Shown: positions 42,368 to 61,164, counted from the stretch's first letter. The stretch: DNA of 64,000 nt from Corallococcus coralloides (GCF_004104415.1 NZ_CP034669.1), one strand, 5' to 3'. Program-made: numbers and translations. The notes: generated by a model from the sequence alone, not told the origin.

Positions 42368-43693
<1,326 letters not shown>

Positions 43694-43779
43694 TTACATT
43701 GGGTCCTCCGGTACGCCGCCGGGCTTCGATTTACCGCGCGTCTTGGGTCGCCGCGCCATTTCCGTTACAAGCCGCCGCC

Positions 43780-45378
43780 ATGTTCAACGTCATCAACGTC
43801 TCCAAGGCCTATGGGCCCAAGAAGCTGTTCGAGGAGGTCAACGTCGCCTTCTCGCCGGGCCGCCGCTACGGCCTGACCGGTCCGAACGGGGCCGGCAAGT
43901 CCACGTTCATGAAGATCCTCGCGGGAGACGAGGAGCAGGACACGGGCGAGATCATCCGCCCCCGCAAGCTGGGCATCCTGCGCCAGGACCACTTCCGCTA
44001 CGAGAACGACCGCGTCATCGACGTGGTGTTGATGGGCAACCGCCACCTGTGGGCGGCGATGGACGAGAAGAACAAGCTGCTCGCCAAGCCGGACATCACC
44101 GAGGAGGACGGCAACCGGCTGGGTGAGCTGGAAGGCGTCATCGCGGAAGAGGACGGCTACTCGGCGGAGAGCGACGCGGCCACGCTGCTGGCCGGCCTGG
44201 GCATCGAGGAGTCCTTCCACGAAGAGCCCATGCGCCAGCTGACGGGCGGCCTGAAGCTGCGAGTGCTGCTCGCGCAGGCGCTGTTCGGCAAGCCGGAGGG
44301 GCTGCTGCTCGACGAGCCCACGAACAACCTGGACATCGACTCCATCCGCTGGCTGGAGAACTTCCTGCATGTGTACGAGGGCGTGCTGATCACCATCAGC
44401 CACGACCGGCACTTCCTGAACTCCATCTGCACGCACATCGCGGACATCGATTACGAGACCATCATCCAGTACACGGGTGGTTACGACGACATGGTCCGGC
44501 AGAAGTCGCAGCTGCGCACCCGGGTCGAGTCCGAGACGGCGGAGAAGAAGAAGAAGATCGCCCAGCTGCAGGACTTCGTGGCGCGCTTCCACGCCGGTAC
44601 GCGCGCGTCGCAGGTGCAGAGCCGCATCAAGCAGATCGACAAGCTGAAGACGGAGGACCTGAAGCGCTCGAACATCGCGCGGCCGTTCATCCGGTTCGAC
44701 CAGAAGGTGGTGAGCGGCCGGCAGACGCTGATGTTCGAGGGGCTGAAGAAGTCCTTCGACGGGGTGCCTGTCATCAAGCCGTTCACGGGCCTGGTCTGCA
44801 AGGGCGAGCGCATCTGCGTGATTGGCCGCAACGCCGTGGGCAAGTCCACGCTGGTGAAGATGCTGGCCGGGCAGCTGGAGCCGGACGCGGGGACCATCAC
44901 CTGGGGCCATCAGGCGACGGTGGGCTACCTGCCTCAGGACCACCACGGCGTCATCCACAAGGGGACGACGTGCTTCGGCTACCTCCGGGAGATCAGCGAG
45001 AAGCTGACGAACGAGGAGATTTCCGGCGTGTTGGGCCGGATGCTCTTCTCGGGTGAGGAGCGGATGAAGGCGACGGACACGCTCTCCGGTGGTGAGACGG
45101 TGCGCGTGCTGTTGTCCAAGCTGATGATCACGCAGGACAACGTGCTGATTCTGGACGAGCCGACGAACCACCTGGACCTGGAGTCCATCGCGGCGCTGGC
45201 GGAAGGCCTGTCGAAGTTCGACGGCACGGTCATCTGCGTGACCCACGACCAGGAGCTCATCTCCGAGGTCGCGACCCGCATCTGGAGCCTGGAGGCGGGC
45301 AAGGACGTGCTCGACTTCAACGGCCCCTACTCCGAGTTCATGGAGAAGCACGCGGACGCGGCGCTCAAGCGCCGGTAG
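43780..45378 (+). CDS. ABC-F family ATPase (two ABC domains, no TMD; Uup/YheS/EttA-like)
   Basis: Start MFNVINVSKAYGPKKLF at 43780; two Walker A 'GPNGAGKST'/'GRNAVGKST', two signatures 'LTGGLKLRV'/'LSGGETVRV', inter-domain linker with KKKK. Confidence 0.9.
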   Translation: MFNVINVSKAYGPKKLFEEVNVAFSPGRRYGLTGPNGAGKSTFMKILAGDEEQDTGEIIRPRKLGILRQDHFRYENDRVIDVVLMGNRHLWAAMDEKNKLLAKPDITEEDGNRLGELEGVIAEEDGYSAESDAATLLAGLGIEESFHEEPMRQLTGGLKLRVLLAQALFGKPEGLLLDEPTNNLDIDSIRWLENFLHVYEGVLITISHDRHFLNSICTHIADIDYETIIQYTGGYDDMVRQKSQLRTRVESETAEKKKKIAQLQDFVARFHAGTRASQVQSRIKQIDKLKTEDLKRSNIARPFIRFDQKVVSGRQTLMFEGLKKSFDGVPVIKPFTGLVCKGERICVIGRNAVGKSTLVKMLAGQLEPDAGTITWGHQATVGYLPQDHHGVIHKGTTCFGYLREISEKLTNEEISGVLGRMLFSGEERMKATDTLSGGETVRVLLSKLMITQDNVLILDEPTNHLDLESIAALAEGLSKFDGTVICVTHDQELISEVATRIWSLEAGKDVLDFNGPYSEFMEKHADAALKRR

Positions 45379-45457
45379 TCAGCACAGCAAGACGAGGCAG
45401 TGCGAACGCCGCCCGTTTCCGGTCCTCCGGAAGCGATGCGGCGTTTTCGTGCGGGTG
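45363..45457 (+). repeat. Direct repeat copy 1 (ABC-F 3' end 'gctcaagcgccggtag' + terminator hairpin 'aacgccgcccgtttccgg...ccggaagcgatgcggcgttttc')
   Basis: Seen directly; 30-nt core 'ggcagtgcgaacgccgcccgtttccggtcc' (45396-45425) identical to 54818-54847; flanks putative island. Confidence 0.8.
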
Positions 45458-45553
45458 TCAATCACCCTCACGGGGGATGCAACCGCGGCGAGGAGTGCGC
45501 CAGAACCTGGGGTGCCAGGTCGTCCCACCCATGACGACCCGGGGGGCACCTCC

Positions 45554-48500
45554 ATGACTCCGCACGACTCGGACCTGCTGAAAGAGCTTCAGCGGCAACG
45601 CACCCGGTTGCTGGATCTGAGCGCAACCAACCGACTCCTCCATTTCAAGCACACGGCCCGGACGTCGCTGCGCCTTGTGGATGAACTGCCAGGTGTTGTC
45701 TTCGAGCGCCTGAGCAACCACCGCGCGCTCACGTTCCTCCCTGTGATGCCGCCGGAGCATGCCTCCTCGGAAGAGGAGGACTTCGACCCTGCCGCCGCGA
45801 CGGTGGTGTTTTCGATGACGGCGGAGGAGGCCCCCAGCAAGGACGCCCGGCAGAAGCTGGTGCTTCAACAGGCGAAGAAGTTGGGCATCGATACCCGGTA
45901 TGATCTGCCCAAGGCGGTCCCTGCAGAGAGCGGCAGCAATCCGCGCAAGCACCAGGACCGCCACATCCAAACGTTGTACTTCCCGGAGGATCTGGAGAGC
46001 CACCTGCACCGCCTCCAGGGCCTCGCGCAAACGGCCATCCAGGAGACCGGGGCCAACCTGCTCCACTTCGTCTTCGGGTTCCTGCGCTGGTACGAGTCCG
46101 GTGACACCCGACAGGAGAAGCCTCGCAGCGCTCCGCTCGTGCTCATGCCGGTGAGCCTCAAGCGCGGCCAGGCGCACCCGGAGACGCGGGTCCACGCCTA
46201 CGAGGTGGACTACAACGAAGGCGAGTCCATCGAAACGAACCTCACGCTCCAGGAGAAGCTGCGGCAGGAGTTCGGCATCACGCTGCCGACCTTCTCCGTG
46301 GAGGATGGCTTGGAGGCGTACTTCGACAAGGTGACGGCGCTGCTCAAGGGCCTGCGCCCTGGCTGGAGCCTGGAGCGGCAGGTGACCCTGACGCTGCTGT
46401 CCTTCGGGCGGCTCCTGATGTGGCGGGACCTGGAGCCCACCCGCTGGCCCCAGAACAGTCCCATGCTGGCGAACCCGCTCGTCCAGACGCTGATGGGAGG
46501 ACAGGCGCATGCGAACGAACTTGGCGGAGGTGGCGGGGGGAGTCGGGAACGCCGGAGCGAGGTCTACGACCTGGACTCGCCAGCAGTGAATCCTCCGCCG
46601 CTCATCACGGACGCGGACAGCAGCCAGCACAGCGTGTTGGTGGACGTGCTCCGAGGCGAGAACCTGGTGGTCCAGGGGCCGCCTGGCACCGGGAAATCAC
46701 AGACCATCACCAACCTCATTGGCGCGGCGCTGGCGGCGGGCAAGACTGTGCTGTTCGTTACGCAGAAGCTGGCGGCGCTGGAGGTCGTCTCACGCCGCCT
46801 CCAGCAGGCGGGGCTCGGCGAGTTCTGCTTGGAGTTACACAGCCACAAGACCCAGAAACAGCAGTTCATGGAGGACCTGCGTCGACGACTCAACCTGGAT
46901 GCGAGCGCGAGCGCCCCTCGCCCGCTCACCGAACAGGTCTCGAGCGCGGCGGGCATCCTGCGCGCGCATACCGAGCGAATGCACAAGCCATTCGGGACGC
47001 TCGGCATGTCACCACACGACGTGTTCTGGAAGGTCAGTCGTGCTGAATCAGAGCTCGGGGAAGCGGTCGTGGAGCTGGAGGGCCTCCGCTTCGAGGGCGC
47101 TGAAGGCATGTCCACCTCTGCTCTGGCGGAGGTTCGCGACGCGGTTCGGAGCCTCGCGGCTCAGCTGGGGGATGTTCGCCGCGTCGCACCCATCCTTAGT
47201 GCTCACCCCTGGGCGGGTGTGACGAACGATGCGCTGACCGACAAGGACCGCCAGACACTCATTCAACGGATCGCCACTTGGGAAGAGTCCGCCCTGCGCT
47301 TGGAGAAAGCGCTGGCGGCCTTCACCGTCCGCACGGGCGTCACGCCCAGGTCGAGCGTGCTCGCGGCGGATGCGCTGGTCTCCAACATCCGGGTCTTGCC
47401 GCGACTCCCGGAGGGGGCTCCCGCGACGCTGGTCCCTGCCCTGCTCGATTCCACGCAGCGCGAGGGATTACGAGCCCTGCTTGATGCCATCGAAGCGGTC
47501 CAGGCGCGGTGGGCGGGGTTGGAAGCGGGCTGGCGCGCCCAGGAGGACCTGACCGCGCCCGCGCTGCGCGATGCGGAAGCCGTCCTCGACATTGCCCTGC
47601 GCCTGCTCTCGCCTGACACCACGCTCGTCACCCTGACGCGCGCGCATGAAGCGGTGGAAGCAGCGGCCCGAGCACTGGCGCAGGCTCGCCGGTTCGTGGC
47701 CGAAGTGGCCTCGTGCCTGGAGGTCGATGTCACGCTCTGGACGCCTCAGCAGCTCCAGACTTTCGCCCGCGTTGTCGAGGCGATGGCCGCCCTGGACGAC
47801 ACCACTTTGGAGTGGCGGGACCCGCGCTGGCTCGATCGCGAAGCCGAGGAGTCACTTCGGAAGGCCGACAGGACCTGCACGGAATTGAAAGAGCAGGCGC
47901 GGGCGCTCGCGGTGCGCTTCATGCCCGAGCTCGTTCCTCCCCTCGCGACGCTCAAGTCCCATGCCGTCGCGGTTGCGACCGCGCCATTCATCCCCTGGCT
48001 CTCGGGCGCATGGCGTGCCGCGCGGCGAGATTTCCAGGCCATGGCCCACGGCGTCCGTCCAACGAGGCCCGTATTGATCCAGGGCTACAACGACCTGCTG
48101 GCACATTACGCGGCACGGGAGCGGCTCCAAGAGGACGCGCCCCTGAAAGCGACCTTGGGCGCCCGCTTCCAGGGAGTCGAGACACGCTTCGACCGAATCC
48201 TTTCGTGGTTGGACGCATACCGGAACATCGATGCATTGCTCCTCACAATGGGCGATCGAGGTTTGGAGCTACGCCGCGCGGTGTTGGAGCGCTCCCCGAG
48301 CCATTGGAGAGAGGTCCTGGCGAAGGTCCGCGCGAAGAGTGATGAACTGCCCCAGGTCCGCGACGTGAGTACCTCCGTGCAAGAGGCCTCGACGCGCATG
48401 GGGCTGCCGCACGCGCCCTGGAACACCGAGCCTTTCGGAAAGGCCCAGGACAGTCTCGACGCCCTGCGGAAGCACCTGGGCGAGGTTCTAAACTGGGCAC

Positions 48501-50752
48501 GGAAGGGAGATGCCCCGCCGTCCCTGACCCTCTCCCAGCTCCAGGGACAGCTGCGCCGGGTGCACGAGGCGTGCGGCGCCACGGACGAACTGGAAGCGCA
48601 CGCTCCCGCAGCGGCCCTGCCAGGGGTGGCCTACCAGGGCCGGAAAACCTCCCTCGCGGGTCCCCGAAGCGTTCTCCGCCATGTTGATGACCTCCTCGCG
48701 GCGCCGCTGCCGGAAGGCTTGGCCGAGTGGCTGCTGCGAGAGGACACGCCACGAAAGCATGCGGACCTGCTCGCCGCCGCGGACGAGTTGGAGACAGCGC
48801 TCTCCGCCTACAGACAGTCCGCCACCCAAGCCTGGGAACTGGGAAGGATGGCCCCGGGCACCTGGGAGGATCACTCCGCCGAGGAACCGCTCCAATGGAC
48901 GGTCTTGCGCCTGCGCCAGGCCCGAAGCCAGTCCGCGACGCTTCCGGCCTGGTGCGCGTATCAACGGCAGCGGCGCGCCGTCGCGCGAGCGCGGAGCACC
49001 GCTGGGTTCTTGGAGCGCGTCGACACACGCCCCGGCCTGGAGCCAGAGCGGCTGGTCGCGGCCTTCGACGCTGTCTTCTTCCGCTCCCTGGCGGAAGCCA
49101 TCCTGCGAAACCAACCGGAGCTCGATCAATTCACGGGCGCCGTCCATGCCTCCCAGCGTGAGGAGTTCGCACGCCTGGACACGCATTGCATCGAAAAGCA
49201 GGGTCGATACCTGGCGCGTCAGCTCAGCCAGCGTCCGGCTCCTCCCGGCGTGTCCTCGGCGAAAGTGGCGGGTATGACGGAGACCCATCTTCTGAGGCAT
49301 GAGCTGGGTAAGAAGCAGCGGCACCTCCCCATCCGTGAGCTGGTGGCACGCGCTGGCAGTGCGCTTCAGACGCTGATGCCGTGTTTCATGATGGGTCCGC
49401 AGTCAGTTGCCCAGTACCTGCCCGCCGGACAGCTGACCTTCGACCTGGTGGTGATGGACGAGGCCAGCCAGATGCGTCCCGAGGATGCACTGGGAGCCAT
49501 TGCCCGAGGAAGGCAGTTGGTGGTGGTGGGCGACCCGGAGCAACTCCCTCCCACCAGCTTCTTCGCCCAGATGGAGCAGGAGGACACAGACTCCAACAAC
49601 GAGACGGGAGACGAGGTCCAGGGCCCGTCCTTCCTGGAGGATTCAGAGAGCATCCTCACGGCGGCGGCGGAGCGGTTCCCCATGCGCATGCTGCGCTGGC
49701 ATTACCGTTCCCGCCATCCCTCGCTCATCGCTTTCAGCAATCGCGAGTTCTACAACGGAGACCTCATCACCTTCCCCGCACCAGGTGAGCAACTGGACGG
49801 GCTGGGACTGCGCTTCCACAAGGTAGACGGAGGATTGTACGAGTCCAACCGAAACGTCCCCGAAGCTCGCGAGGTGCTGGCGAAGGTGAAAGAGCACGCG
49901 CGTACTCGCCCCGAGCAGAGCCTGTTGGTCGTCACGTTGAACTCGAAGCAGCGGGATCTCATCGACGACCTGGTGATTGCCGAGGAGAAGAACGACGTGA
50001 CCCTCCGGGCCTTCCTGGCGAAATGGGAAAAGTCACCCATGCCCTTCAACGTGAAGAACCTGGAGAACGTCCAGGGCGACGAGCGCGACGCCATCTTCGT
50101 GTCGGTCACGTTTGGTCGGAACCAGCAGAAGCAGTTCCGGATGAACTTCGGCCCCATCAACCAAGCGGACGGGTACCGTCGGCTGAACGTGCTCTTCACG
50201 CGGGCGAGATGCGCGCTGACGGTGTTCGCATCGTTCGACCCCTCGGAACTCACGCTCCAGGAAAGCAGCCCGCGTGGGATGCGCGTCCTGCAACGGTACC
50301 TGTCCGAAGCCAAAGGAGAGAAGGTGGCGCACGGCGTGGGGAGCGGCCGTCCACCGGATTCCGACTTCGAAATCGCTGTCGCGAAGGCGCTCGCGGCGCG
50401 GGGCTTCGAGGTGGTTCCGCAGGTAGGCGTCGCGGGCTACTTCATCGACATGGCCCTCCGGCATCCCCAGCAACCGGGCCGATACATTCTCGGTGTCGAG
50501 TGCGACGGCGAGCGGTATCACTCATCGCGCTCCGCACGGGACCGAGATCGGCTCCGGGACCAGGTGTTGAAGGGCCTGGGGTGGAAGCTCCACCGCATCT
50601 GGTCCACGGACTGGTTCCGCTCACCTTCCGAAGAGGTCGCCCGGATCGTCGCGCACGTCGAAAAGCTCCTTCGGGAGGAGGCAACTGAGTTGCCAGCCGT
50701 CGTGCGTGATGCGTCCCAGGTGGAGCACCAGATGCGAGCCGTCAGCGCCTGA
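45554..50752 (+). CDS. Large DUF4011/SF1 (Upf1-DNA2-like) helicase fused to C-terminal Vsr/DUF559(DUF3320)-type endonuclease; candidate defence protein
   Basis: Start MTPHDSDLLKEL at 45554; Walker A 'VVQGPPGTGKSQTITNLI', motif II 'FDLVVMDEASQM', 'VVVGDPEQLPPT', 'NVQGDERDAIFVS', 'NVLFTRAR'; C-terminus 'GYFIDMALRHPQQPGRYILGVECDGERYHSSRSARDRDRLRDQVLKGLGWKLHRIWSTDW' REase-like. Confidence 0.8.
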   Translation: MTPHDSDLLKELQRQRTRLLDLSATNRLLHFKHTARTSLRLVDELPGVVFERLSNHRALTFLPVMPPEHASSEEEDFDPAAATVVFSMTAEEAPSKDARQKLVLQQAKKLGIDTRYDLPKAVPAESGSNPRKHQDRHIQTLYFPEDLESHLHRLQGLAQTAIQETGANLLHFVFGFLRWYESGDTRQEKPRSAPLVLMPVSLKRGQAHPETRVHAYEVDYNEGESIETNLTLQEKLRQEFGITLPTFSVEDGLEAYFDKVTALLKGLRPGWSLERQVTLTLLSFGRLLMWRDLEPTRWPQNSPMLANPLVQTLMGGQAHANELGGGGGGSRERRSEVYDLDSPAVNPPPLITDADSSQHSVLVDVLRGENLVVQGPPGTGKSQTITNLIGAALAAGKTVLFVTQKLAALEVVSRRLQQAGLGEFCLELHSHKTQKQQFMEDLRRRLNLDASASAPRPLTEQVSSAAGILRAHTERMHKPFGTLGMSPHDVFWKVSRAESELGEAVVELEGLRFEGAEGMSTSALAEVRDAVRSLAAQLGDVRRVAPILSAHPWAGVTNDALTDKDRQTLIQRIATWEESALRLEKALAAFTVRTGVTPRSSVLAADALVSNIRVLPRLPEGAPATLVPALLDSTQREGLRALLDAIEAVQARWAGLEAGWRAQEDLTAPALRDAEAVLDIALRLLSPDTTLVTLTRAHEAVEAAARALAQARRFVAEVASCLEVDVTLWTPQQLQTFARVVEAMAALDDTTLEWRDPRWLDREAEESLRKADRTCTELKEQARALAVRFMPELVPPLATLKSHAVAVATAPFIPWLSGAWRAARRDFQAMAHGVRPTRPVLIQGYNDLLAHYAARERLQEDAPLKATLGARFQGVETRFDRILSWLDAYRNIDALLLTMGDRGLELRRAVLERSPSHWREVLAKVRAKSDELPQVRDVSTSVQEASTRMGLPHAPWNTEPFGKAQDSLDALRKHLGEVLNWARKGDAPPSLTLSQLQGQLRRVHEACGATDELEAHAPAAALPGVAYQGRKTSLAGPRSVLRHVDDLLAAPLPEGLAEWLLREDTPRKHADLLAAADELETALSAYRQSATQAWELGRMAPGTWEDHSAEEPLQWTVLRLRQARSQSATLPAWCAYQRQRRAVARARSTAGFLERVDTRPGLEPERLVAAFDAVFFRSLAEAILRNQPELDQFTGAVHASQREEFARLDTHCIEKQGRYLARQLSQRPAPPGVSSAKVAGMTETHLLRHELGKKQRHLPIRELVARAGSALQTLMPCFMMGPQSVAQYLPAGQLTFDLVVMDEASQMRPEDALGAIARGRQLVVVGDPEQLPPTSFFAQMEQEDTDSNNETGDEVQGPSFLEDSESILTAAAERFPMRMLRWHYRSRHPSLIAFSNREFYNGDLITFPAPGEQLDGLGLRFHKVDGGLYESNRNVPEAREVLAKVKEHARTRPEQSLLVVTLNSKQRDLIDDLVIAEEKNDVTLRAFLAKWEKSPMPFNVKNLENVQGDERDAIFVSVTFGRNQQKQFRMNFGPINQADGYRRLNVLFTRARCALTVFASFDPSELTLQESSPRGMRVLQRYLSEAKGEKVAHGVGSGRPPDSDFEIAVAKALAARGFEVVPQVGVAGYFIDMALRHPQQPGRYILGVECDGERYHSSRSARDRDRLRDQVLKGLGWKLHRIWSTDWFRSPSEEVARIVAHVEKLLREEATELPAVVRDASQVEHQMRAVSA

Positions 50753-50765
50753 ACAGGAGACATCC

Positions 50766-52331
50766 ATGACAACGATCATCGCCATTGGCCTGGGCGTGTT
50801 GGGCCTGTTGCTCCTTGGCTTGTGGTTGCGGACGCGAAGCCAGCTCAAGGCCGTCCAGGAACGATTCAAGCCCATCCTGGACCTGGAGGCCGAACGGCGC
50901 CGGGTCGCGGAGGAGTTGACGCAGGCCCGCACGGACGCGACCACGGCGATGGCCGCGGAACAAAAGCGGGTCCAGGACGAACTGGCCAAAGCCCGAAGCG
51001 AAGCGGACAGTGCGCTGGCGGCGGAGCGGAAGCGGGTGGAAACCGAGCTCGCTCGCGCCAAGGCAGACGTGGAGCAGGCCATCTCCGCGGAACAGGGCCG
51101 GGCCAAAGCGGAGTTGAACCGGCTCCGCGAAGAGACGAGCCGGACGACGCAAAGCGCGACGCGCGCCATGGAGGAAGCCGAAGCGCGTCGAAAGCAGGCG
51201 AACACCGAGCGGACCAGCCTGGAGTCAGGCATCGCCCGACTGAAGGCCGAGTTGAAGGCATTGGAGGAAGAGGAGGTCCTGCTCTCATTCGGATTCTACA
51301 AGCCGGTGTATGCGTTGGCGTCGGTCAAGGAGTACGAGGACCGGCTGGAGAGGATCCGCGACTCCCAGAAGCAGATGCTGAAGAACAAGGAAGCCGCCAC
51401 GTGCTCCATTCAGTGGGAGGTGAATGGAAGCAAGGCAGAAGGCAAGAAGCAGATTGACCGGACCTTGAAGCTGATGCTCCGGGCCTTCAACGGCGAGGCG
51501 GACGCGTGTGTGGCGAAGGTGTCCTACAAGAACGTAAAGGCCATGGAGACGCGCATCGAGAAGGCGGCCGCCGCCATCAATGGTCTCGCGGAGATCCAGC
51601 AGTGCGTCATCGCCAGGCGCTACGTCAAGCTCAAGGTCGAGGAGCTGATGCTCGCGTACGAGTATGAGGAGAAGGTGCAGCAGGAGCGTGACGAGCAGCG
51701 CCGGATCCGGGAGCAGATGCGCGAGGAGGAGGCCGCCCAACGCGAGTTGGAGAAGGCGAAGCTGGAGGCGGAGCGCGAAGCGAAGCGCGACGCAGAGGCC
51801 CTGGCCAAGGCAAAGGCGGACTACGAGCAGGCCAAGGGCTCAGAGCAGCAGAGGCTGATGGAGCGCATCGCGGAGCTGGAGCGCCGTGTGGCGGAAGACC
51901 TGGAGAAGCAGCGCGCCATCTCCCAGGCCCAGCTCACCCGGACGGGGCATGTCTACGTCATCTCCAACATCGGCTCCTTTGGAGACGGCGTGTTCAAGAT
52001 GGGAATGACCCGGCGGCTGGTACCCCAGGACCGCATCGACGAGCTGGGAGACGCGTCGGTGCCCTTCGAGTTCGACGTCCACGCCATCATCCGGACCTCG
52101 GATGCCCCGGCCTTGGAAAACGCATTGCACAAGGCTTTCGCGAATCGGCGCGTCAACCGCATCAACGAGCGCAAGGAGTTCTTCCGCGTCAGCCTGGATG
52201 AGATCGCGGAGGCGGTCCGCAAGCATCACGGTGAGTTTGAATTGACCCGGACTGCTGAAGCTGCGGAATACCGGAAGACGTTGGCACTCCAAGAGGGAGA
52301 ACAAGGTCGGCCCAGTGAGCAAGCCGCATGA
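50766..52331 (+). CDS. N-terminal TM + coiled-coil + DUF4041 + T5orf172 (GIY-YIG-like) domain protein; candidate defence protein
   Basis: Start MTTIIAIGLGVLGLLLLGLWL at 50766; 180-aa coiled coil; C-terminus 'GHVYVISNIGSFGDGVFKMGMTRRLVPQDRIDELGDASVPFEFDVHAIIRTSDAPALENALHKAFANRRVNRINERKEFFRVSLDEI' matches T5orf172/MUG113 consensus. Confidence 0.75.
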   Translation: MTTIIAIGLGVLGLLLLGLWLRTRSQLKAVQERFKPILDLEAERRRVAEELTQARTDATTAMAAEQKRVQDELAKARSEADSALAAERKRVETELARAKADVEQAISAEQGRAKAELNRLREETSRTTQSATRAMEEAEARRKQANTERTSLESGIARLKAELKALEEEEVLLSFGFYKPVYALASVKEYEDRLERIRDSQKQMLKNKEAATCSIQWEVNGSKAEGKKQIDRTLKLMLRAFNGEADACVAKVSYKNVKAMETRIEKAAAAINGLAEIQQCVIARRYVKLKVEELMLAYEYEEKVQQERDEQRRIREQMREEEAAQRELEKAKLEAEREAKRDAEALAKAKADYEQAKGSEQQRLMERIAELERRVAEDLEKQRAISQAQLTRTGHVYVISNIGSFGDGVFKMGMTRRLVPQDRIDELGDASVPFEFDVHAIIRTSDAPALENALHKAFANRRVNRINERKEFFRVSLDEIAEAVRKHHGEFELTRTAEAAEYRKTLALQEGEQGRPSEQAA

Positions 52332-52371
52332 ATTATGACCGGCCTGCACTTCTGGTAGCGTTCAGCACTCG

Positions 52372-54102
52372 ATGAACTCCGACCCGTTTTCGCATCCTGC
52401 GGATGCGCTCCCTAATGCTGTCATTGCCGCCTCTCAAACTCGGAAGATCGCGTTTTTGCTAGGCTCCGCCCTGTCGACACAAGAAAGAACTGGCGCCCCC
52501 CAGGTCCCCGGGGTGAACGCGATGCTCGATCTGATCCGCGAGCACGTTCCCGCCCAGTTTCAGGCGAAATTCGATACAGATCGGATTCACATCAAAGACA
52601 ATATCTACCAATGGGCCATGCATTTTCTGCAGGGCCGAGAGGGCAAGCAGGTCGCCGAGAAGGTTGTGAGAGAAGCTGTGCTCCGTGCACGGCTCGACCG
52701 ACAAAGGGATGGCGCCGCAACTGATGCCGAGCTTGATCGGGACTACGACGGATGGGCACTGCCTCCTGCGACTGAGCACCTTGGCAAACTACTGGTGGAG
52801 CAGGCTGACAAATTTGGTCCTGTCTTGACCACGAACTTCGACCCTCTCATCTCCGCGTCAATCAAGATGGCTGGCGGAGATTTTCACCGCACCCTCGTGG
52901 TCAACAACAGTCCTTTTGGGCACACGACTCTATCCTCGAACTCGACACACATTATTCATCTACACGGCTACTGGCACAAGTCACCCACGTTACACTCCGT
53001 CGCGCAGATTGCTCGTGATCGAGATCAAGTCGCCGCAGAGCTTGTTCAGATTCTTCAAAACCACACCCTCGTTGTCGTCGGATACGGCGGCTGGGATGAC
53101 GTCTTCACCAAGACGCTCTCGGCTATCAACGCCAACCCGCATAATGATGTCGACATCCTTTGGGCATTCTACGAAACCGAAGCAGATCACTTGCTTGAGG
53201 CGCGTTATCACCACCTCTTCAGCAAGGTTTCAAACTTAAGGGGCAACACGGGTCTTCGCTGCTACAAGGGCATCAACTGCCACAAGTTCTTTCCTGAACT
53301 TCGAAAACAGTTCGACGCATCCGTTGCCCCGCAGTCGCCCCCTCCCAGCACAGTCCGACAGCCACCGCCGCCATCCATCCCAATCGCCTCGACCACCAGA
53401 GCCCCTGGGCCGGCGACCTCGTCCCCCTCAAGTGCGGCGAAGCCACCCGAGCCAGTGCCCTCCGCGTCGGACCGTCCCGCCTCCCCTTCCGTTCCAAAGA
53501 CGGACGGCACGGGCAGCCCTCCGAAATCAGGCTCCAGGAGAATCCTGCCGTTTGCGGCTGCCGCGCTGATTGCCGGCGGCGTGGCAGCGGTCTGGCCATC
53601 CCCGAGCAAAGGCGTCAGCAATGACGTCTTTGTCGTTCAGACTCCGCGCAATCTGAGACCTGTCGAGCCGCAGCCCCCGACGACGACCGCTCCGGCCCCG
53701 GTACCCGCAAGCACGCTCAGAAGCGTTCGCCAACAACACCAGGTCGTGGCAGCTTCGGACGCCGAACGCGGAACTCGCGTCTCGCAGCTTCCCCGGGGTC
53801 GCTACGCATTTGTGCCGATGAGCGCTCTTCCCACCTACAGCGCGGACACCCCCATCTACGGCCCCATTCAGGAGGGAATCGAGATTCATCGCTCGCGCGC
53901 GGATGGAGCCTTGTATCTCGTAGGCTACGCGGATGCCCCGACCATCGCGGCCCTGGGATATCCGAACCCCGCGCCCATCGTCATTACCCCAACACCCAGC
54001 GGTAGAAGGACGCAGGTCGCGAGCATTTCTGTCTCTCGGATGACCACCGCTGAAGTACGCATGGACAAGGGCACCCGCGTGTTGGTTCTCCACCTCAACT
54101 AA
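52372..54102 (+). CDS. SIR2-like (SIR2_2/DHS-like NAD-binding) domain protein with Pro-rich linker, single TM helix and C-terminal periplasmic domain
   Basis: Ordered motifs 'KIAFLLGSALS' (Rossmann Gly loop), 'VLTTNFDPLI' (TTNYD-like), 'HIIHLHGYW' (catalytic His) with ThsA-like spacing; TM 'ILPFAAAALIAGGVAAVW'; N-terminal 900 nt ~50-53% GC vs ~69% background. Confidence 0.6.
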   Translation: MNSDPFSHPADALPNAVIAASQTRKIAFLLGSALSTQERTGAPQVPGVNAMLDLIREHVPAQFQAKFDTDRIHIKDNIYQWAMHFLQGREGKQVAEKVVREAVLRARLDRQRDGAATDAELDRDYDGWALPPATEHLGKLLVEQADKFGPVLTTNFDPLISASIKMAGGDFHRTLVVNNSPFGHTTLSSNSTHIIHLHGYWHKSPTLHSVAQIARDRDQVAAELVQILQNHTLVVVGYGGWDDVFTKTLSAINANPHNDVDILWAFYETEADHLLEARYHHLFSKVSNLRGNTGLRCYKGINCHKFFPELRKQFDASVAPQSPPPSTVRQPPPPSIPIASTTRAPGPATSSPSSAAKPPEPVPSASDRPASPSVPKTDGTGSPPKSGSRRILPFAAAALIAGGVAAVWPSPSKGVSNDVFVVQTPRNLRPVEPQPPTTTAPAPVPASTLRSVRQQHQVVAASDAERGTRVSQLPRGRYAFVPMSALPTYSADTPIYGPIQEGIEIHRSRADGALYLVGYADAPTIAALGYPNPAPIVITPTPSGRRTQVASISVSRMTTAEVRMDKGTRVLVLHLN

Positions 54103-54108
54103 CTAACA

Positions 54109-54783
54109 ATGAAACTCAAAAATCGTCCCCTTTTCCTTGGTTTGATGTCGCTTCTCTTGCTTGCTGGCTGTGGGCCCGAGGACCTCAACCCTGGTCCCGT
54201 CGACCCCATCGTGGAAGACCCGCCGCTCGAGCAGATCTGCACTGCGGGAAACTGCGCGGGCTGCTGTGACCCGACCACGAAAAAATGCGTCCAGGTTCGC
54301 ACCAACGATGCATGTGGCGCCAATGGCGTCAGCTGCACGAAATGCGCGACGGGCACCATCTGCCATCCATCACAGCAACAGTGCTACACACCTACCATCC
54401 GCGCGAAGATCCGGGCTGTGCGGGCTACAGTCTCCTCCCATGATCCCGCAGATGACAGTGACTGGGATGTCGATGGCTCACCCCCGGACGCCTTGATTCA
54501 GCTGACCTGCCCCAACGCCCAGCCTGCGGTTTCCGAGTCGGAAGAGGTTGAGAGCTTCACCCCCAACTGGACCACGGGGGCGTGTGATGTCCTCGGCACG
54601 GATCTGCTTTCCATGCCTGTCCAGTTCAACGTTCTCGATGTCGACGTTCTCGTCGATGACAATGTTGCGTCAGGCCAGTACCAGTTCACCCAAGCCGACG
54701 TCGATAATGGAGCCGTGGAATTGACGGGCTCCGGTGCTCTGACCTCCGTGGTTTTCCAGCTCACCACCTACTACGCCGACTAG
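54109..54783 (+). CDS. Cys-rich lipoprotein (paralog of 58758..59378)
   Basis: Lipobox 'LLLLAGCG'; 'CTAGNCAGCCDPTTKKCVQVRTNDACGANGVSCTKCATGTICHPSQQQCYTP...DWDVDGSPPDALIQLTCPNA' conserved with 58758 gene. Confidence 0.65.
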   Translation: MKLKNRPLFLGLMSLLLLAGCGPEDLNPGPVDPIVEDPPLEQICTAGNCAGCCDPTTKKCVQVRTNDACGANGVSCTKCATGTICHPSQQQCYTPTIRAKIRAVRATVSSHDPADDSDWDVDGSPPDALIQLTCPNAQPAVSESEEVESFTPNWTTGACDVLGTDLLSMPVQFNVLDVDVLVDDNVASGQYQFTQADVDNGAVELTGSGALTSVVFQLTTYYAD

Positions 54784-54789
54784 GTCGGA

Positions 54790-54881
54790 GCTCAAGAGCG
54801 CCGGTTCCGAGGCTCCAGGCAGTGCGAACGCCGCCCGTTTCCGGTCCATCCGGAAACGAGGCGGCGTTTTCATGCCCGGGT
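54790..54881 (+). repeat. Direct repeat copy 2 (includes 'gctcaagagcgccggt' remnant of ABC-F 3' end + terminator hairpin with U-tract)
   Basis: Seen directly; hairpin 'aacgccgcccgtttccgg-tccat-ccggaaacgaggcggcgtt' followed by TTTTC. Confidence 0.8.
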
Positions 54882-54934
54882 CGACAATGGCTCTACTGCA
54901 ATATGGTGCAGCTCGTTCGGTATGATGCAGGGCC

Positions 54935-56365
54935 ATGTACCCGAGACGCCGTCTTCTGGCCCGTGGACAGTGGCTGTTCGATCTCAGACCGCATCGGCTC
55001 ATCGTCTTCCACGGAGGCGAAGGCGTGCGCCGGGAGGTCAGTGGAGACGTTCCGAATCCTCCGGCCGCACCCGTGGTGCTCGCCGCGCTGGATGAGGCAA
55101 CGAACGTCTGGGTGGGAAGCGGGAATCGGCGTGTCTTTACCGTGGGGGCCAGCGCGAGCGCTCCCGCCCAGGCCTTTCCGCGGGAGTGCTTCGATCTCAC
55201 CTCCGATGGGGACCGGCTCATCGGAACGGTGGTGGACGGCGCCCTCAAGCTGACCACCCTCTTCACGACCGATGGGTCCGGGCAGCAATGGGCGCCCCTG
55301 CCCCTGCCCAAGCCCGTGACCGCCACGCACGGATATGGGTACTCCGAGGGGCGCCCTCCCCGTCAGTCCCCTGATGGGGCGTTCCTTGATACGAGCCCCT
55401 TTGGCATCACCGTCGTGGAGAAGGGCCGGGGCCGCGTCTACGTGCTCCGCCCGGGGGCGGCTCAGCCGGAGGGAGCGCTCCAGATGGAACCGGGCCATGA
55501 GCAGGACATCTGGCGGGCCCAGGCCACTCCCCATGGTGTGCTCCTCCTGCTCGTCATCAACTACCGCCAGACAGCGCTCCTCCACTTCGCGCTCGACGGC
55601 ACCCTGCTCGGCTCCATCCCGGAACAGGATGGTGATGACGATGAGGAAGAGGAACAGACCTGGGGCGGTGCCGGTGTGTGTGTCCTCGACGCGGACCGGG
55701 CGCTCCTCTTCGTCCAGGACAAGGCCCTCCTCGTATCTCTGCCCGGGCTCCAGGTGATCGAAACGCTCGCGGGAGAATGGCCCTCCTTCGTGTCCGTGAC
55801 GCCCGCGGGACCTGACCGGTGGTGGGTGGGCGCCGAGGACAGTGACTCACTCTTCCTGCTCACAGCCGAACCCGGACACCCCTTGCACCTCCATTCCTCG
55901 AACCGTCCGGTGAGCCCGGGCGCGCCGCTCATGCACGTGGGCTACAAGACGCCCGCGATCCACTGGGCCGAGCACACCTCGGCGCCGCTGACCGTGTCCG
56001 CGCCCGTGACCGAGACCTGGCGGGCGGTGGTGCGCAATGACGGGACCGCGTGTGAGGTGGTGCGGATCCGCGTGTCCGGAGTGCTCGTCGGCGCTCGCGT
56101 GGTGGACGTGAGCGTGCGGTATCGCGGCCAGCCGCTCCCGATGGTAGAGGAGCACCGCGTGAACCTCGTGGGGAATACCTCCGGACTGGAGGGAGGGGCC
56201 ACCGCGGAGCTGGAGGTGACCTTCAAGCCCCGGAGCGAGGGCTCGGGACCGCTGACCATCACCGTCGAGCCGTGCTCCTGGCAGTGGCAGGGCAAGGACG
56301 AGCCTCGCGCCCTCGCGGTGACGGGCCATCCGGCATCCGCCCAATTCCTGCTCACGGTGGAGTAG
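54935..56365 (+). CDS. Hypothetical protein (476 aa)
   Basis: Protein-like composition, acidic linker 'DGDDDEEEEQ'; no recognised domain. Start uncertain. Confidence 0.45.
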   Translation: MYPRRRLLARGQWLFDLRPHRLIVFHGGEGVRREVSGDVPNPPAAPVVLAALDEATNVWVGSGNRRVFTVGASASAPAQAFPRECFDLTSDGDRLIGTVVDGALKLTTLFTTDGSGQQWAPLPLPKPVTATHGYGYSEGRPPRQSPDGAFLDTSPFGITVVEKGRGRVYVLRPGAAQPEGALQMEPGHEQDIWRAQATPHGVLLLLVINYRQTALLHFALDGTLLGSIPEQDGDDDEEEEQTWGGAGVCVLDADRALLFVQDKALLVSLPGLQVIETLAGEWPSFVSVTPAGPDRWWVGAEDSDSLFLLTAEPGHPLHLHSSNRPVSPGAPLMHVGYKTPAIHWAEHTSAPLTVSAPVTETWRAVVRNDGTACEVVRIRVSGVLVGARVVDVSVRYRGQPLPMVEEHRVNLVGNTSGLEGGATAELEVTFKPRSEGSGPLTITVEPCSWQWQGKDEPRALAVTGHPASAQFLLTVE

Positions 56366-56394
56366 CGCGGACCACGCCCCCGTCTTCGCTCAGC

Positions 56395-57393
56395 TCATGA
56401 CGGGCGAGGGCTGGAGTCGTCGCTCGCGGTGACCTGCTGGACGAGCTGGGCCAACTGCCGCGAGGTCACCGGCTCCCCCTCCGAGAGGATGAAGTCCTCC
56501 AGGTCCTTCCGGAACGCGTGGCAGTCCGGGTAGCGCTGCTCCCGCTCCTTCGCGAGCGCCCGGGCGAGGATGGCTCGAAGGGCATCGGGCAGGTCTTGCC
56601 GGTGCTGCTCGGCGGGCACGAGGGGCTCGAACAAGGCGGCCTGAAACAAGCCCCCGTCGGGCGTGGAATCAAAGGGCCTGCGCGTGGTGAGCACCCCGTA
56701 GAGCGCCACACCGAGCGCGTATACGTCCACCCTCCGATCCACCGGCACGCCCCTGGCCTCCTCGGTCGCCATGTACCTGTACTTGCTCAGGTTGGGGATG
56801 AGGTATCGGGGCGCCCATCGATCCCGGAAATCGTCGATGCCGAAGCCCACCACCTGGGTCATCCCCTGGCGCGACAGGAGGATGTTGTACGGCCTGATGT
56901 GTCGGTGGATGAGCCTCAACGGCTCGTGCGTCTTTGGGTCGGTGAGGTCGTGGGCATAGGCGAGCCCCTCGCAGGCTTGCGAGATGATGCGCGCGCACAG
57001 GGTCGCCGGCAGGGGCATCCGCTGGGCCGCCACGTGCTCGATCACCCTGCGCAGGCTGGGCCCGTCAATGTGCTCCCTGGCGAGGAAGTACGTGCCGTCC
57101 GCCTCACCCACGTCGAAGACCTTCACGAGGTGCGGGTGCGTGAGCCGGGCGGCGTTCCTCGCCGTGTCGAGGAAGATCTCCGGGAAATCCACCTGCTCGG
57201 CCATGTCCGAGCGGAGGCACTGGAGCACCAGCGTCTTCTCGGTGCCCTGCGGGCCGGCGGCGCTGGCCAGATAGTCCTCGATGATGCCTTCAGCGAGCAG
57301 GCGGATGCGCTGGTATTTGCCAACTTGGGATGTCACGGGGCGTATGAATAGCAGACCATGACCCGGTATCGCTTCCTGGGGCTTGCACCGCAC
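56395..57393 (-). CDS. Ser/Thr kinase-fold pseudokinase
   Basis: Kinase subdomains recognisable but catalytic residues replaced: 'TLVLQCL' (VAIK Lys->Gln), 'IHRHIRPYNILL' (HRD Asp->His), 'VVGFGI' (DFG->GFG); retains 'YMATEEA' (APE-like) and 'DVYALGVALYGVLT'. Confidence 0.65.
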   Translation of the reverse strand: MRCKPQEAIPGHGLLFIRPVTSQVGKYQRIRLLAEGIIEDYLASAAGPQGTEKTLVLQCLRSDMAEQVDFPEIFLDTARNAARLTHPHLVKVFDVGEADGTYFLAREHIDGPSLRRVIEHVAAQRMPLPATLCARIISQACEGLAYAHDLTDPKTHEPLRLIHRHIRPYNILLSRQGMTQVVGFGIDDFRDRWAPRYLIPNLSKYRYMATEEARGVPVDRRVDVYALGVALYGVLTTRRPFDSTPDGGLFQAALFEPLVPAEQHRQDLPDALRAILARALAKEREQRYPDCHAFRKDLEDFILSEGEPVTSRQLAQLVQQVTASDDSSPRPS

Positions 57394-58734: not shown

Positions 58735-58757
58735 AGCGGGTAGCGTTCACCGCGCTC

Positions 58758-59378
58758 ATGAAAGTCCTTGGCCGTTGGATGTTCGTCCTGCTGTGCGCGC
58801 TGTGGCTCCCCGCCTGCGGTCCCTACGACTGCAACCCGGAGAACTGCGCGGACGGCTGCTGCTCCGCGCTCAATGAGTGCATCCGCTACCGGAGCGACTC
58901 GGAATGCGGCCCCAATGGCGGCACCTGTGAAGCCTGCGCGGAAGGCAGCGTCTGCCGGCTCGACCAGCGCGTTTGCTACACGGGCGTGATGCGCACCTAC
59001 GTGCAGCCCCGGCGCGCCGTCATCGCGGACGTCGCCCCGGATACGGGCGAGGACTGGGACTCCGATGGCTCCCCGCCGGACGTCGTCGTGGAGATGGAGT
59101 GCCCCTCCGCTCCCGAGCGCTCCCGTACCCCCGAGGACGAGAGCTGGGACCCCGAATGGCGCTCCGGCGGCTGCCAGGTCATCACGTCCAACCTGCTGCG
59201 CTACCCGCTCGAAATCTCCATCTTCGACAACGACGACTTCACCTTCGATGACGGGTTCGGCGGCCTCTCCTACCAGGTCACCCGCGCGGACCTGAGCCTG
59301 GGCCGCATCGAGCTGTCCATCCCGCCCATCGTGAAGACGCTCGTCTTCGACCTGAGCCACAACTACGCGCCGCAATGA
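58758..59378 (+). CDS. Cys-rich lipoprotein (paralog of 54109..54783)
   Basis: Lipobox 'LWLPACG'; 'CNPENCADGCCSALNECIRYRSDSECGPNGGTCEACAEGSVCRLDQRVCYTG...DWDSDGSPPDVVVEMECPSA' same Cys spacing as 54109 gene. Confidence 0.65.
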   Translation: MKVLGRWMFVLLCALWLPACGPYDCNPENCADGCCSALNECIRYRSDSECGPNGGTCEACAEGSVCRLDQRVCYTGVMRTYVQPRRAVIADVAPDTGEDWDSDGSPPDVVVEMECPSAPERSRTPEDESWDPEWRSGGCQVITSNLLRYPLEISIFDNDDFTFDDGFGGLSYQVTRADLSLGRIELSIPPIVKTLVFDLSHNYAPQ

Positions 59379-59417
59379 GGCTGTAACCGCTCCCCCGCCC
59401 CCGGCGTAGTCCTGACC

Positions 59418-59903
59418 ATGCGCGCCCACCTCCTGCCGTACATGGTCCTGTTCGCCGCCGCCTGCGGTCCCTCCTCCTCCGTGGACGAGGGGCTCGGCGT
59501 CGTCCAGGGCATCGACACGTCCGAGACCGGCATCACCGCCTTCGTCCGCTCGGGCCAGTACACCTCCTGGCTCGCGGAGCCCTCGGTCCACGACACGCGC
59601 GCGCCCCATGGCAGCAAGGTCCGCGTGTTCTTCAACGACGTCGTCGCCCAGTCGCTTCGCGACGGCAACGCCACGCACCCCGTGGGCAGCATCCTGGTGA
59701 AGGAGCTCTTCGAGGACGACGGGAAGACGCTCAAGGGCCACGCGCTGGACGTGAAGGTCGCGGAGGGCCCCGGCAAGGACACCTGGATCTTCTACGAGGG
59801 CTTCGGCCCCAGCTACTCCAACAACTACTACGGCCGCGCCCACTCGACCTGCCACGGCTGCCACTCGGACGGGGTGGACTACGTCACCTCCCCCCTGCCC
59901 TGA
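59418..59903 (+). CDS. Small lipoprotein with C-terminal CXXCH motif
   Basis: Lipobox 'LFAAACG'; C-terminus 'AHSTCHGCHSDG' contains CHGCH (CXXCH haem-c-like). Confidence 0.5.
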   Translation: MRAHLLPYMVLFAAACGPSSSVDEGLGVVQGIDTSETGITAFVRSGQYTSWLAEPSVHDTRAPHGSKVRVFFNDVVAQSLRDGNATHPVGSILVKELFEDDGKTLKGHALDVKVAEGPGKDTWIFYEGFGPSYSNNYYGRAHSTCHGCHSDGVDYVTSPLP

Positions 59904-59956
59904 AAATGACGACGGGCGGCCCCCTTCCGAGGACCGCCCGCCGTTGAGCGGCTTGG

Positions 59957-60997
59957 CTACCGTGCCGCGGACTTGCGGCGCATCAGGAACACGCCCAGGC
60001 CCACGCCCGCGACCCACTTCGCTGCGGCGGCCAGCGGCGTCTTGCTCAGCGCCACCGGGCGGCTCTCGTACCGTGGCTGGGGCGGCACCGGACGGAAGTC
60101 CGTGGCGCCGGGGAGGCTCGCGCCCTTCTCCTCCGCCTCCGTCTTCGTCACGTTCGGTCCCGGCGCGTCCGGATCCCGCGAACCCGGCGCCTTCCCGTCC
60201 GGCGACTTGTGCTCGAGGATGCCGTTGATCTCCGCGCCCAGCAGCACGACCATGCAGGAGATCTGCATCCACAGCAGCATCACGATGACACCGCCGATGG
60301 CGCCGTAGTTCACGTCGTACGAGCCAAAGTTCGCCACGTACTTCGAGAACCCCCACGAGGCGAGCACCCAGATGATCACGCTCACCACCGACCCCGGCGT
60401 GATGAACCTGAACTTCTGCTTCACGTCCGGCAGCACGTAGTAGAGCACCGCCAGCAGCAGCATCATCAGGATGCCCGCCACCGGCATGCGCAGCCACAGC
60501 ACGAGGCTGGTGAATGGCTCGCCCAGCTTGTCCGCGATGGCCGGCGTGACGACCGCGACGAGGGCCGCCAGCACCACCGTCACCGCCGTGCCCAGCGTCG
60601 TCAGCAGGGCAATGCCGCGCTTCTTCCAGAACGGGCGCTTCTCCGTCACGCCGTAGACCGTGTTGAGCGCCTCCATCAGCGCCACCACACCGCCGGACGC
60701 CGCCCAGACGGCGCCCACGCCGCCGATCGTCAGCAACCCCACCGGATTGCTGGTCGCCAGCGCCTCCAACCGCTCGCCCAGGATCTTCGTCACCTCCTGG
60801 GGCGCCACCTTCGACAGCTCCTGGATGAGCTGCTGCGCCTGGTGCGGATCAATCAGCACACCGGCCAGTGACACGAGGAACAGCAGGAACGGGAACAGCG
60901 CCAGGATGGCGGAGAACGTCAGCGCGCCCGCGACGTTGCCCACGTTGTCGCGCCCCCACTCATCCTTGAGGGACTTGAAGAACTCCTTCCAACTCAT
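59957..60997 (-). CDS. YihY/BrkB-family inner-membrane protein
   Basis: Start MSWKEFFKSLKDEWGRDNVGNVAGALTFSAILALFPFLLF at 60997; six TM helices, family pattern 'YGAIGGVIVMLLWMQISCMVVLLGAEIN'. Confidence 0.8.
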   Translation of the reverse strand: MSWKEFFKSLKDEWGRDNVGNVAGALTFSAILALFPFLLFLVSLAGVLIDPHQAQQLIQELSKVAPQEVTKILGERLEALATSNPVGLLTIGGVGAVWAASGGVVALMEALNTVYGVTEKRPFWKKRGIALLTTLGTAVTVVLAALVAVVTPAIADKLGEPFTSLVLWLRMPVAGILMMLLLAVLYYVLPDVKQKFRFITPGSVVSVIIWVLASWGFSKYVANFGSYDVNYGAIGGVIVMLLWMQISCMVVLLGAEINGILEHKSPDGKAPGSRDPDAPGPNVTKTEAEEKGASLPGATDFRPVPPQPRYESRPVALSKTPLAAAAKWVAGVGLGVFLMRRKSAAR

Positions 60998-61164
60998 TCC
61001 CCTGCCGGGCAGGACCATGCGTCTCCTCCTTGGAGGAGATTGGGCATTCCATCCCCCGGCTGGCCTCCTCCCCCGGGACGATGCTCGCCCCCCTGCCTGC
61101 TCACCGCGCAGGGGGCGGGGAATGACAAGCCCCCCGCGCCACGCCTGCCCGGCCGCCCTTCGTG

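Follow-up and report, generated by a model that had tools for sequence, protein, structure and literature searches.

Recombination scars beside an ABC-F gene in a core defence hotspot of Corallococcus

Introduction

In the 64-kb stretch of Corallococcus coralloides DNA analysed here (the window, W), the 3' end of a gene encoding an ABC-F ATPase and the terminator hairpin behind it occur twice, with four genes between the two copies. The question raised by this locus is whether the repeats are the attachment sites (attL/attR) of a site-specifically integrated island, as proposed in a preliminary description of the segment 45363-54881, or the product of another kind of recombination. Comparison within the genus identified the interval from the ABC-F gene to a lipoprotein gene and BrkB as a genus-wide chromosomal (core) defence hotspot of Corallococcus. 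With its known systems, recombination scars and one uncharacterised gene pair, the locus is a new instance of such a hotspot. Repeats that duplicate the 3' end of a gene are not always att sites; comparative genomics here shows a core hotspot free of recombinases. Phage defence in myxobacteria has been little studied, and the ABC-F/BrkB interval is a place to look for new systems.

The comparison set comprised 21 Corallococcus genomes, counting W, with 473 kb of DNA in all. Two proteins of W, the SIR2 protein and a 476-aa (amino acid) protein described below, matched C. coralloides entries at 100% identity. A scan of species-representative genomes for ABC-F yielded 80 orthologous loci, 13 of them from Corallococcus, and gene-context look-ups contributed 8 more loci from 7 further genomes. 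The loci of relatives carry L-numbers, among them L004 (C. carmarthensis), L006 (C. llansteffanensis), L008 (C. sicarius), L082 (Corallococcus sp. CA054B, the closest relative of W found) and L087 (C. interemptor). Domains were assigned using Pfam and defence genes using PADLOC; structures were assessed using AlphaFold2 (AF2) models and Foldseek.

The two repeat copies

Direct repeats duplicating the ABC-F 3' end and terminator are indeed present. A local alignment extends the similarity over 45360-45462 and 54786-54888 with three small indels, that is, from -19 to +84 relative to the ABC-F stop codon (the reference for all signed positions below).

45360..45462, + strand: copy 1; last 19 nucleotides (nt) of the ABC-F gene, stop codon, 20-nt spacer, terminator hairpin (stem arms 45405-45445) and T-run
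54786..54888, + strand: copy 2; ABC-F 3' relic that begins at -19, with TTC in place of the TAG stop codon, a different spacer, an intact terminator hairpin and a T-run
54889..54918, no strand: filler between copy 2 and a cargo module (module B); 30 nt with no significant similarity to the leader that follows copy 1 or to relatives

The only long direct repeat linking both places is an exact 31-nt repeat (family D19; 45395-45425 = 54817-54847), which at up to three mismatches occurs exactly twice in the window as against zero occurrences expected from 100 shuffles. The ABC-F gene ends at 45378 ('GCGCTCAAGCGCCGGTAG') and is followed by the hairpin and T-run of copy 1; 3' of the lipoprotein stop codon (54783), the sequence 'GGAGCTCAAGAGCGCCGGTT' and a differing spacer lead to the same hairpin. 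Copy 2 retains 'GCTCAAG(A)GCGCCGGT' of the ABC-F 3' end, the coding sequence matching at 15 of 15 nt with one insertion. The hairpin of copy 1 has a calculated energy of -46.9 kcal/mol (z -3.4), that of copy 2 one of -60.1 kcal/mol (z -5.2); a T-run comes after each, and the stem of copy 2 is the more perfect one (arms 54827-54868, a 19-bp stem that is perfect but for one bulge). Copy 1 serves the ABC-F gene as its working terminator and was present in all 19 loci that include the 3' end of this gene. Copy 2, left over from an ABC-F 3' end with its terminator, has kept an intact hairpin and T-run and probably now terminates the four-gene operon. An extension of copy 2 past +86 into the leader was considered and rejected, the similarity being no better than that of shuffled sequences.

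An identical core within the repeats had been pointed out previously; it is real (31 nt, exact), but it is not special to the pair in W, because the same 31 nt occur at the single-copy ABC-F terminator of another species (L009). In L082 one position of the core is changed. The core is accordingly the conserved left arm of the terminator and no crossover site. No further copy of the hairpin was found in the 473 kb of Corallococcus DNA beyond the ABC-F terminator and relic positions, which speaks against a dispersed family of repetitive extragenic palindromic (REP)-like terminators. A metagenome scan with the 18-mer ACGCCGCCCGTTTCCGGT was uninformative: it returned 80 chance matches, none of which was the hairpin.

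Genomic context and the empty site

Gene-family mapping revealed a constant backbone of tgt (- strand), ABC-F (+), a variable segment, lipoprotein F2 (+), a 161-aa (amino acid) gene (F9, +) and BrkB (-). ABC-F, with 95-98% aa identity, lies on the left in the 21 genomes, and F2, F9 and BrkB lie on the right wherever the contig extends that far. The genes of W in and around the variable segment are:

42368..43576, - strand: left backbone, tRNA-guanine transglycosylase (TGT); 94-99% identity by tblastn in Corallococcus loci, orthologue PF01702
43780..45378, + strand: ABC-F ATPase, 532 aa; two ABC_tran domains and ABC_tran_Xtn (Pfam); 95-98% aa identity across Corallococcus
45463..45553, + strand: leader between the terminator and the first cargo gene; GTGTCAATCACCCTCACGGGGGATGC...GAGTGCGCCAGAACC
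45554..50752, + strand: Hhe-type protein, 1732 aa; DUF4011, SF1 helicase (AAA_11/AAA_12) and C-terminal MTES_1575/DUF559 endonuclease
50766..52331, + strand: SNIPE/PD-lambda-1, 521 aa; transmembrane (TM) helix at residues 1-23, coiled coil, DUF4041 and T5orf172 (GIY-YIG) nuclease
52372..54102, + strand: SIR2_2 protein, 576 aa (Pfam, PADLOC)
54109..54783, + strand: Cys-rich lipoprotein, 224 aa; lipobox LLAGC, C-terminal C2-like beta-sandwich
54919..57393, no strand: module B, variable cargo composed of the next two genes
54935-56365, + strand: 476-aa protein; homologues named 'CARDB domain-containing' in UniRef
56395-57393, - strand: Ser/Thr kinase of module B
57471-58130, - strand: GST (Pfam, orthologue annotation)
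58228-58734, + strand: HxlR-type regulator, the last part of the segment missing from the empty site
58758..61018, no strand: right backbone flank, composed of the next three genes
58758-59378, + strand: lipoprotein F2
59418-59903, + strand: 161-aa protein (F9)
59957-61018, - strand: BrkB/YihY-family membrane protein

An empty site was found in L006, where W 42002-45459 corresponds to L006 8228-11683 and W 58739-62000 to L006 11687-14969. Because this site joins 45459 to about 58735, the variable segment of W is 45460-58734 (13.3 kb), and copy 2, the 54935 gene and the kinase, GST and HxlR genes all lie inside it. The preliminary description had predicted a different empty site, with the ABC-F terminator directly before the 54935 gene; this arrangement was seen in none of the 21 genomes, and the 54935 gene is itself variable cargo.

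Nine relatives carry the Hhe-SNIPE core right behind ABC-F without a second repeat copy, and six of them (L002, L081, L082, L083, L088 and L025) have all four genes, an outcome that the preliminary description had itself named as contrary to its proposal. In L025, L009 and L011 the backbone begins immediately behind the Hhe module, again with no second copy. L082 is colinear with W over W 43663-54783 (92.3%) and W 54919-62000 (94.1%), and the sole structural difference is that 135 bp of W (54784-54918, with copy 2) are replaced by a 1216-bp antisense pentapeptide-repeat gene; L002, L081, L083 and L088 are arranged like L082. The left edge of module B (W 54919) is the same in every genome carrying this module, whatever adjoins it on the left.

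These observations bear on the possibility that the two copies are the attL and attR of an integrated island 45363-54881, whose integrase was lost or acts in trans. Direct repeats of a gene 3' end do bracket four foreign-looking defence genes, part of the segment is lower in G+C content (GC), and a relic stands behind the lipoprotein gene in at least two species and could date from the arrival of the module. Islands targeting tRNA or tmRNA genes, integrative and conjugative elements and phage-inducible chromosomal islands likewise have direct repeats with the 3' end of a conserved gene around foreign genes; unlike these, the locus of W has no integrase, the repeat is inconstant in length and missing in relatives, and the empty site does not match. 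In L002, L081-L083, L088, L025, L009 and L011 this site holds the same module and no copy 2, and the empty site joins 45459 to 58735 and not the two copies. As already remarked in the preliminary description, no island gene has an integrase domain (Pfam); across the 21 genomes no integrase or recombinase was found in or beside the island, only transposase remnants of insertion sequence (IS) elements (IS66 in L008, IS630-like in L003, Tnp_1 in L012). Left edges of the relics fall at 0, -19, -23 and -465, the cargo they flank is unrelated and includes a Kelch paralogue, and the 31-nt core is a conserved terminator arm that the single-copy terminator of another species shares unchanged. Nor did the module turn up on plasmids, phages or viral contigs: megablast against 72,556 plasmids and 50,697 phages gave no match, and there were no relatives of Hhe among the IMG/VR viral contigs. 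The att-site proposal is thus largely refuted, and we regard it as very unlikely.

Contents of the hotspot

The most frequent occupant of the variable segment is the Hhe-SNIPE pair (13/21 genomes), with or without the SIR2 and lipoprotein genes. Other occupants were:

L001: Shedu SduA (1.6e-132)
L084: OLD/AriA/GajA-like ATPase-TOPRIM protein (1e-54)
L010: TmtA (1e-109)
L005: second SNIPE type and PDC-M04A/DUF3800
L085, L087: PDC-M51A radical SAM
L012: GGDEF protein
L004: AAA_21-methyltransferase; Kelch/Big_7 paralogue
L008: IS66

The interval thus combines conserved flanking genes with defence systems that differ between genomes, no single mobilising element and a lowered G+C content. GC is 53-66% across the island compared to 68-74% in the flanks, and 53-58% over the N-terminal part of the SIR2 gene compared to 68-72% in the backbone; the mosaic composition noticed earlier is confirmed by this dip, and the segment is mosaic phylogenetically as well. 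The four genes between the copies are as first described (Hhe, SNIPE/PD-lambda-1, SIR2/TM and Cys-rich lipoprotein; Pfam, PADLOC), and the term defence island is justified: Hhe and SNIPE are named anti-phage systems (PADLOC), and the SIR2 domain is of a defence type.

Core hotspots without a single mobilising element have been described in P. aeruginosa (Johnson et al. 2023, PMC10250203). The core defence hotspots cDHS1 and cDHS2 of that species likewise have core-gene flanks, strain-variable named defence systems, no single mobilising element and lower GC, and cDHS1 has a DUF4011 gene at its edge as the Corallococcus hotspot has with Hhe (PMC10250203). Unlike cDHS1 and cDHS2, the Corallococcus hotspot is flanked by ABC-F and lipoprotein-BrkB, is far smaller (0 to about 13 kb), includes non-defence cargo (GST, HxlR, kinase, Kelch protein) and keeps 3' relics of a flank gene that hint at the mechanism.

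In the Myxococcaceae, ABC-F and BrkB adjoin in convergent orientation with 67 bp to 8.5 kb between them, and TGT adjoins ABC-F in all Corallococcus and Myxococcus loci. Outside Corallococcus (L013-L029: Myxococcus, Pyxidicoccus, Hyalangium) genes for large CHB_HEX_C_1/Fn3_assoc repeat proteins, one to three of them, lie in the interval on the minus strand. A defence hotspot at this place in Myxococcus and Pyxidicoccus was considered and rejected, as the interval there holds CHB_HEX_C_1 repeat surface proteins.

The spot next to the terminator also collects IS elements. IS66 lies directly 3' of the ABC-F terminator in C. sicarius (L008 11744-13964), and IS630-like and Tnp_1 helix-turn-helix remnants occur in the hotspot of two further species (L003 5236-5784; L012 11830-12171). 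In L087 an AT-rich, non-coding stretch of ~0.8 kb (12271-13056) lies between the radical SAM and 476-aa genes.

Relics of the ABC-F 3' end

Relics of the ABC-F 3' end were found in 5/21 genomes, beside differing cargo:

L003: 537 bp, 95% identical, -465 to +67
L004: 96 bp, -23 to +69; the enclosed cargo is a Kelch protein
L085: left edge about 0; directly 3' of the lipoprotein gene, then leader and radical SAM gene
L087: left edge -19; directly 3' of the lipoprotein gene, then leader and radical SAM gene
W (copy 2): left edge -19

Right edges of the relics coincide at the end of the terminator or of the leader, which is included in L085 and L087, and the left edges scatter (0, -19, -23, -465). 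Half of the relic hairpin is deleted in L087. W and L087 have the junction 'TAGGTCG(G)AG...CGCCGGTTC' in common, including the old stop codon changed from TAG to TTC. The alignment score of copy 2 of W is 119 to the C. exiguus-type copy compared with 113 to copy 1 of W, and its spacer resembles the C. exiguus type and not copy 1, at few informative sites. Because copy 2 best matches the C. exiguus type and shares its junction and altered stop codon with L087, it is an old relic and not a fresh target duplication, lost or overwritten in other lineages. The notion that copy 2 is a patch specific to W, replacing the pentapeptide-repeat gene, was dropped once the same junction turned up in L087.

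The spacers and terminators of the relics in L003 and L004 (L003_c2, L004_c2) match the working copy of L001, which is the type of their own clade, and the working copies of these two genomes belong to other types. Identity to L001 in the last ~410 nt is 96.8% for L003_c2 versus 94.9% for L003_c1, with 97.6% for the upstream part of ABC-F, a comparison of low resolution. In L003 and L004 the relic therefore looks native, and the copy adjoining ABC-F looks as if imported along with new cargo.

Origin of copy 2

Probably, the core hotspot has been growing by ABC-F-anchored homologous exchange combined with illegitimate joining, and copy 2 is a leftover of this process. Donor DNA of another strain, with the 3' part of ABC-F, terminator, leader and new cargo, would recombine homologously inside ABC-F, and an illegitimate join would attach its far end to the resident ABC-F, at the stop codon or shortly before it, so that the resident 3' end and terminator would be pushed downstream of the new cargo (displacement by homology-facilitated illegitimate recombination). 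Later homologous exchanges between conserved genes and shared modules could then shuffle, replace or delete blocks. Displacement is suggested by the conserved anchor, the fixed right edge and variable left edges of the relics, and, in L003 and L004, the native-type relic beside a foreign-type working copy; from these we infer the direction and number of events and the illegitimate joint. In W, L087, L085, L003 and L004 an anchor 3' relic precedes the displaced downstream module. The assembly of defence islands without mobility genes is poorly documented, and the ABC-F relics would record, in readable form, how anchored recombination stacks cargo.

Displacement has been proposed as the origin of arrays in which relics of a conserved upstream gene persist, namely type VI secretion system (T6SS) effector-immunity, Rhs and contact-dependent inhibition (CDI) arrays (PMC5361080). 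Rhs C-terminal tips, CDI orphan modules and the T6SS arrays of V. cholerae likewise have an anchor upstream, new modules beside the anchor, older modules displaced and no recombinase, and their displaced modules are preceded by a leftover of the anchor 3' end, as in the Corallococcus locus (PMC5361080). Unlike these arrays, the anchor in Corallococcus is an unrelated housekeeping gene with its terminator and not the 5' part of a toxin gene, the cargo is anti-phage, and there is at most one relic per locus and no long array.

Several points weigh against this origin. The pre-insertion order that it predicts (ABC-F, terminator and leader, directly followed by the radical SAM or the 476-aa gene) is absent from the 21 genomes. 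At the joint between the lipoprotein stop codon and ABC-F position -19, microhomology can be argued for over 3-5 nt at most (CGCCG / CGG) and falls short of significance. The 465 nt of homology in L003 should permit a clean homologous crossover, and an illegitimate join is not expected there. The relic junction of L085 differs from that of W and L087, so that one or several events may be involved. Finally, a Campbell-type single crossover predicts almost the same footprint.

In the latter case a circle with an ABC-F 3' fragment, terminator and cargo, which could arise by illegitimate circularisation of donor DNA, would integrate by one homologous crossover at the chromosomal ABC-F 3' end and leave the homologous stretch duplicated around the cargo. 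No recombinase would be needed to give direct repeats whose length varies and whose right edge is fixed, and the 537-bp, 95%-identical duplicate of L003 has a size that fits a RecA-dependent single crossover. The 16-23 nt of coding and about 60 nt of terminator homology in W and L004 are short for such an event, however, and the circularisation step is unexplained. Chimeric copies are also predicted, whereas in L003 the relic looks wholly native and the working copy wholly foreign, at low resolution. Integration of a circle is therefore considered unlikely.

The copies could also stem from a local tandem duplication of the ABC-F 3' end and terminator, with cargo arriving between them later, or from a convergently evolved terminator. 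Both copies look like functional terminators and the hairpin is well conserved. Convergence is contradicted by the ABC-F coding sequence in the relics (15/15 nt with one insertion in W, 465 nt in L003), which are therefore copies. A tandem duplication conflicts with the different lineage types of the copies within one genome (L003, L004, W), unless it was very old and one copy was replaced. Neither origin is given any but the slightest credence.

In a sliding comparison with its closest relatives, W shows 93-99% identity in ABC-F, Hhe and SNIPE and 74-89% in exactly the block formed by SIR2, lipoprotein and copy 2 (52.2-54.9 kb), coinciding with the GC dip; module B is back at 92-97%. Homologous exchange between SNIPE and the 476-aa gene, one of the later exchanges envisaged above, appears to have replaced this block in one piece, and W would therefore carry copy 2 where its nearest relatives have the pentapeptide-repeat gene.

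Leader after the ABC-F terminator

The first ~65 nt of the leader are common to loci with differing first cargo genes. The consensus is GTGTC.AT.CCCCTCACGGGGGATGC...GAGTG...CCAGAAC with a small palindrome CCCTC..GAGGG, found at 45453-45520 of the window, L001 1810-1880, L085 8280-8340 and L087 10720-10790. Depending on the species, the first cargo gene behind it is Hhe, TmtA, a SNIPE-like gene, a Shedu operon or a radical SAM gene. Homology of W to loci with other cargo stops at staggered points (45459, 45467, 45480 and 45507). The leader may be a shared promoter or operator for whichever cargo comes first. A sigma-70 promoter scan found no promoter in 43-58 kb, the model used being uninformative for high-GC myxobacteria, and searches of 45000-59500 (Rfam) and of the window (tRNA) gave no match.

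Defence genes of the window

The gaps between the Hhe, SNIPE, SIR2 and lipoprotein genes are only 13, 40 and 6 nt, because of which the four genes probably form one operon. The Hhe protein is a single large protein with DUF4011 (Pfam, 2.5e-33), an SF1 helicase and a Vsr/DUF559-type nuclease (MTES_1575, 5.6e-37), by which it would belong to Hhe; the PADLOC models PDC-S37 (E=0) and Hhe (4e-279) agree. SNIPE has an N-terminal TM anchor, DUF4041 (3.9e-21) and a C-terminal GIY-YIG nuclease (T5orf172, 9.4e-18) and matches PADLOC PD-Lambda-1 over nearly its full length (1e-152). The same features are found in the architecture of SNIPE defined experimentally (PMC13190303). Both W proteins match the full domain architecture of the respective single-gene systems, Hhe and SNIPE/PD-lambda-1.

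Hhe and SNIPE, each described as a single-gene system, are adjacent with a 13-nt gap in 13/21 Corallococcus genomes, and their divergence is unequal (Hhe 68-93% aa, SNIPE 84-96% aa identity). The two may function together as a constant pair.

The SIR2 protein and the C2-like lipoprotein

The SIR2 protein consists of a cytoplasmic SIR2 domain, a Pro-rich disordered linker (318-445), one TM helix (390-409) and a C-terminal domain (446-576), which is confidently folded in the AF2 model and predicted to be periplasmic. The motifs TTN155FD and H196-L-H198-G are invariant in 23 SIR2 homologues, and a SIR2 NADase domain with catalytic Asn and His is thus present. Foldseek matched the domain of the AF2 model with a probability of 1.00 to 8jl0, 8ykf, 7uxt, 8wld and 9jap, the fold matches being the SPARSA SIR2, DSR2, ThsA, SIR2-HerA and Avs5. 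W SIR2 has the same catalytic N/H motifs and fold as the known SIR2 effectors (ThsA, DSR1/2, SIR2-HerA, SPARSA, Avs5); unlike these systems, it combines a TM helix with an extracytoplasmic domain, is co-inherited with a C2-like lipoprotein and is without known partner modules. None of the partner or sensor modules of known SIR2 systems (SLOG/TIR, DSR C-terminal repeats, HerA, pAgo-APAZ, STAND NTPase) was found in the protein or its neighbours, and no PADLOC model covers the protein outside the SIR2 domain. The full SIR2-TM architecture is essentially limited to Corallococcus; elsewhere, in more distant homologues, the SIR2 domain is fused to STAND/NB-ARC modules.

The C-terminal part of the lipoprotein (AF2 model) has structure matches to C2 domains. 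Homologues occur only in Corallococcus, and the protein is 38% aa identical to the backbone lipoprotein F2 (58758-59378) with all Cys conserved, so that it is a paralogue of F2. The gene accompanies the SIR2 gene in 9/9 genomes having the latter. Over SIR2 and lipoprotein (52372-54783) the nt identity to all relatives is 74-89% versus 92-99% for the flanking genes, and GC is lowest here, which suggests an imported allele or fast diversifying evolution. A membrane-sensing NADase system would be plausible. The pair is the least-known part of the locus and the first candidate for a new system.

SNIPE acts at the membrane during genome injection. We put forward, tentatively and with considerable doubt, two further readings. 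In the first, the SIR2-TM protein and the C2-lipoprotein would be a new two-gene, envelope-sensing abortive-infection system, suggested by the cytoplasmic NADase domain, the TM helix, the folded extracytoplasmic domain, the constant co-inheritance of the two genes and the neighbouring SNIPE gene; in the second, the terminator with its ~65-nt leader would be an integrase-free landing pad, an expression and recombination platform for repeated defence cargo with the relics as its footprints, analogous to integron attI/Pc but without an integrase.

Other repeats in the window

Kelch-type coding repeats of ~144-147 nt form long arrays in two large genes of the window, at 24250-26260 (- strand) and 33840-35550 (+ strand), and a paralogue of these genes is the cargo between both ABC-F copies in C. 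carmarthensis (L004). An 87-nt tandem repeat is present in four copies at 37820-38190 of the window.

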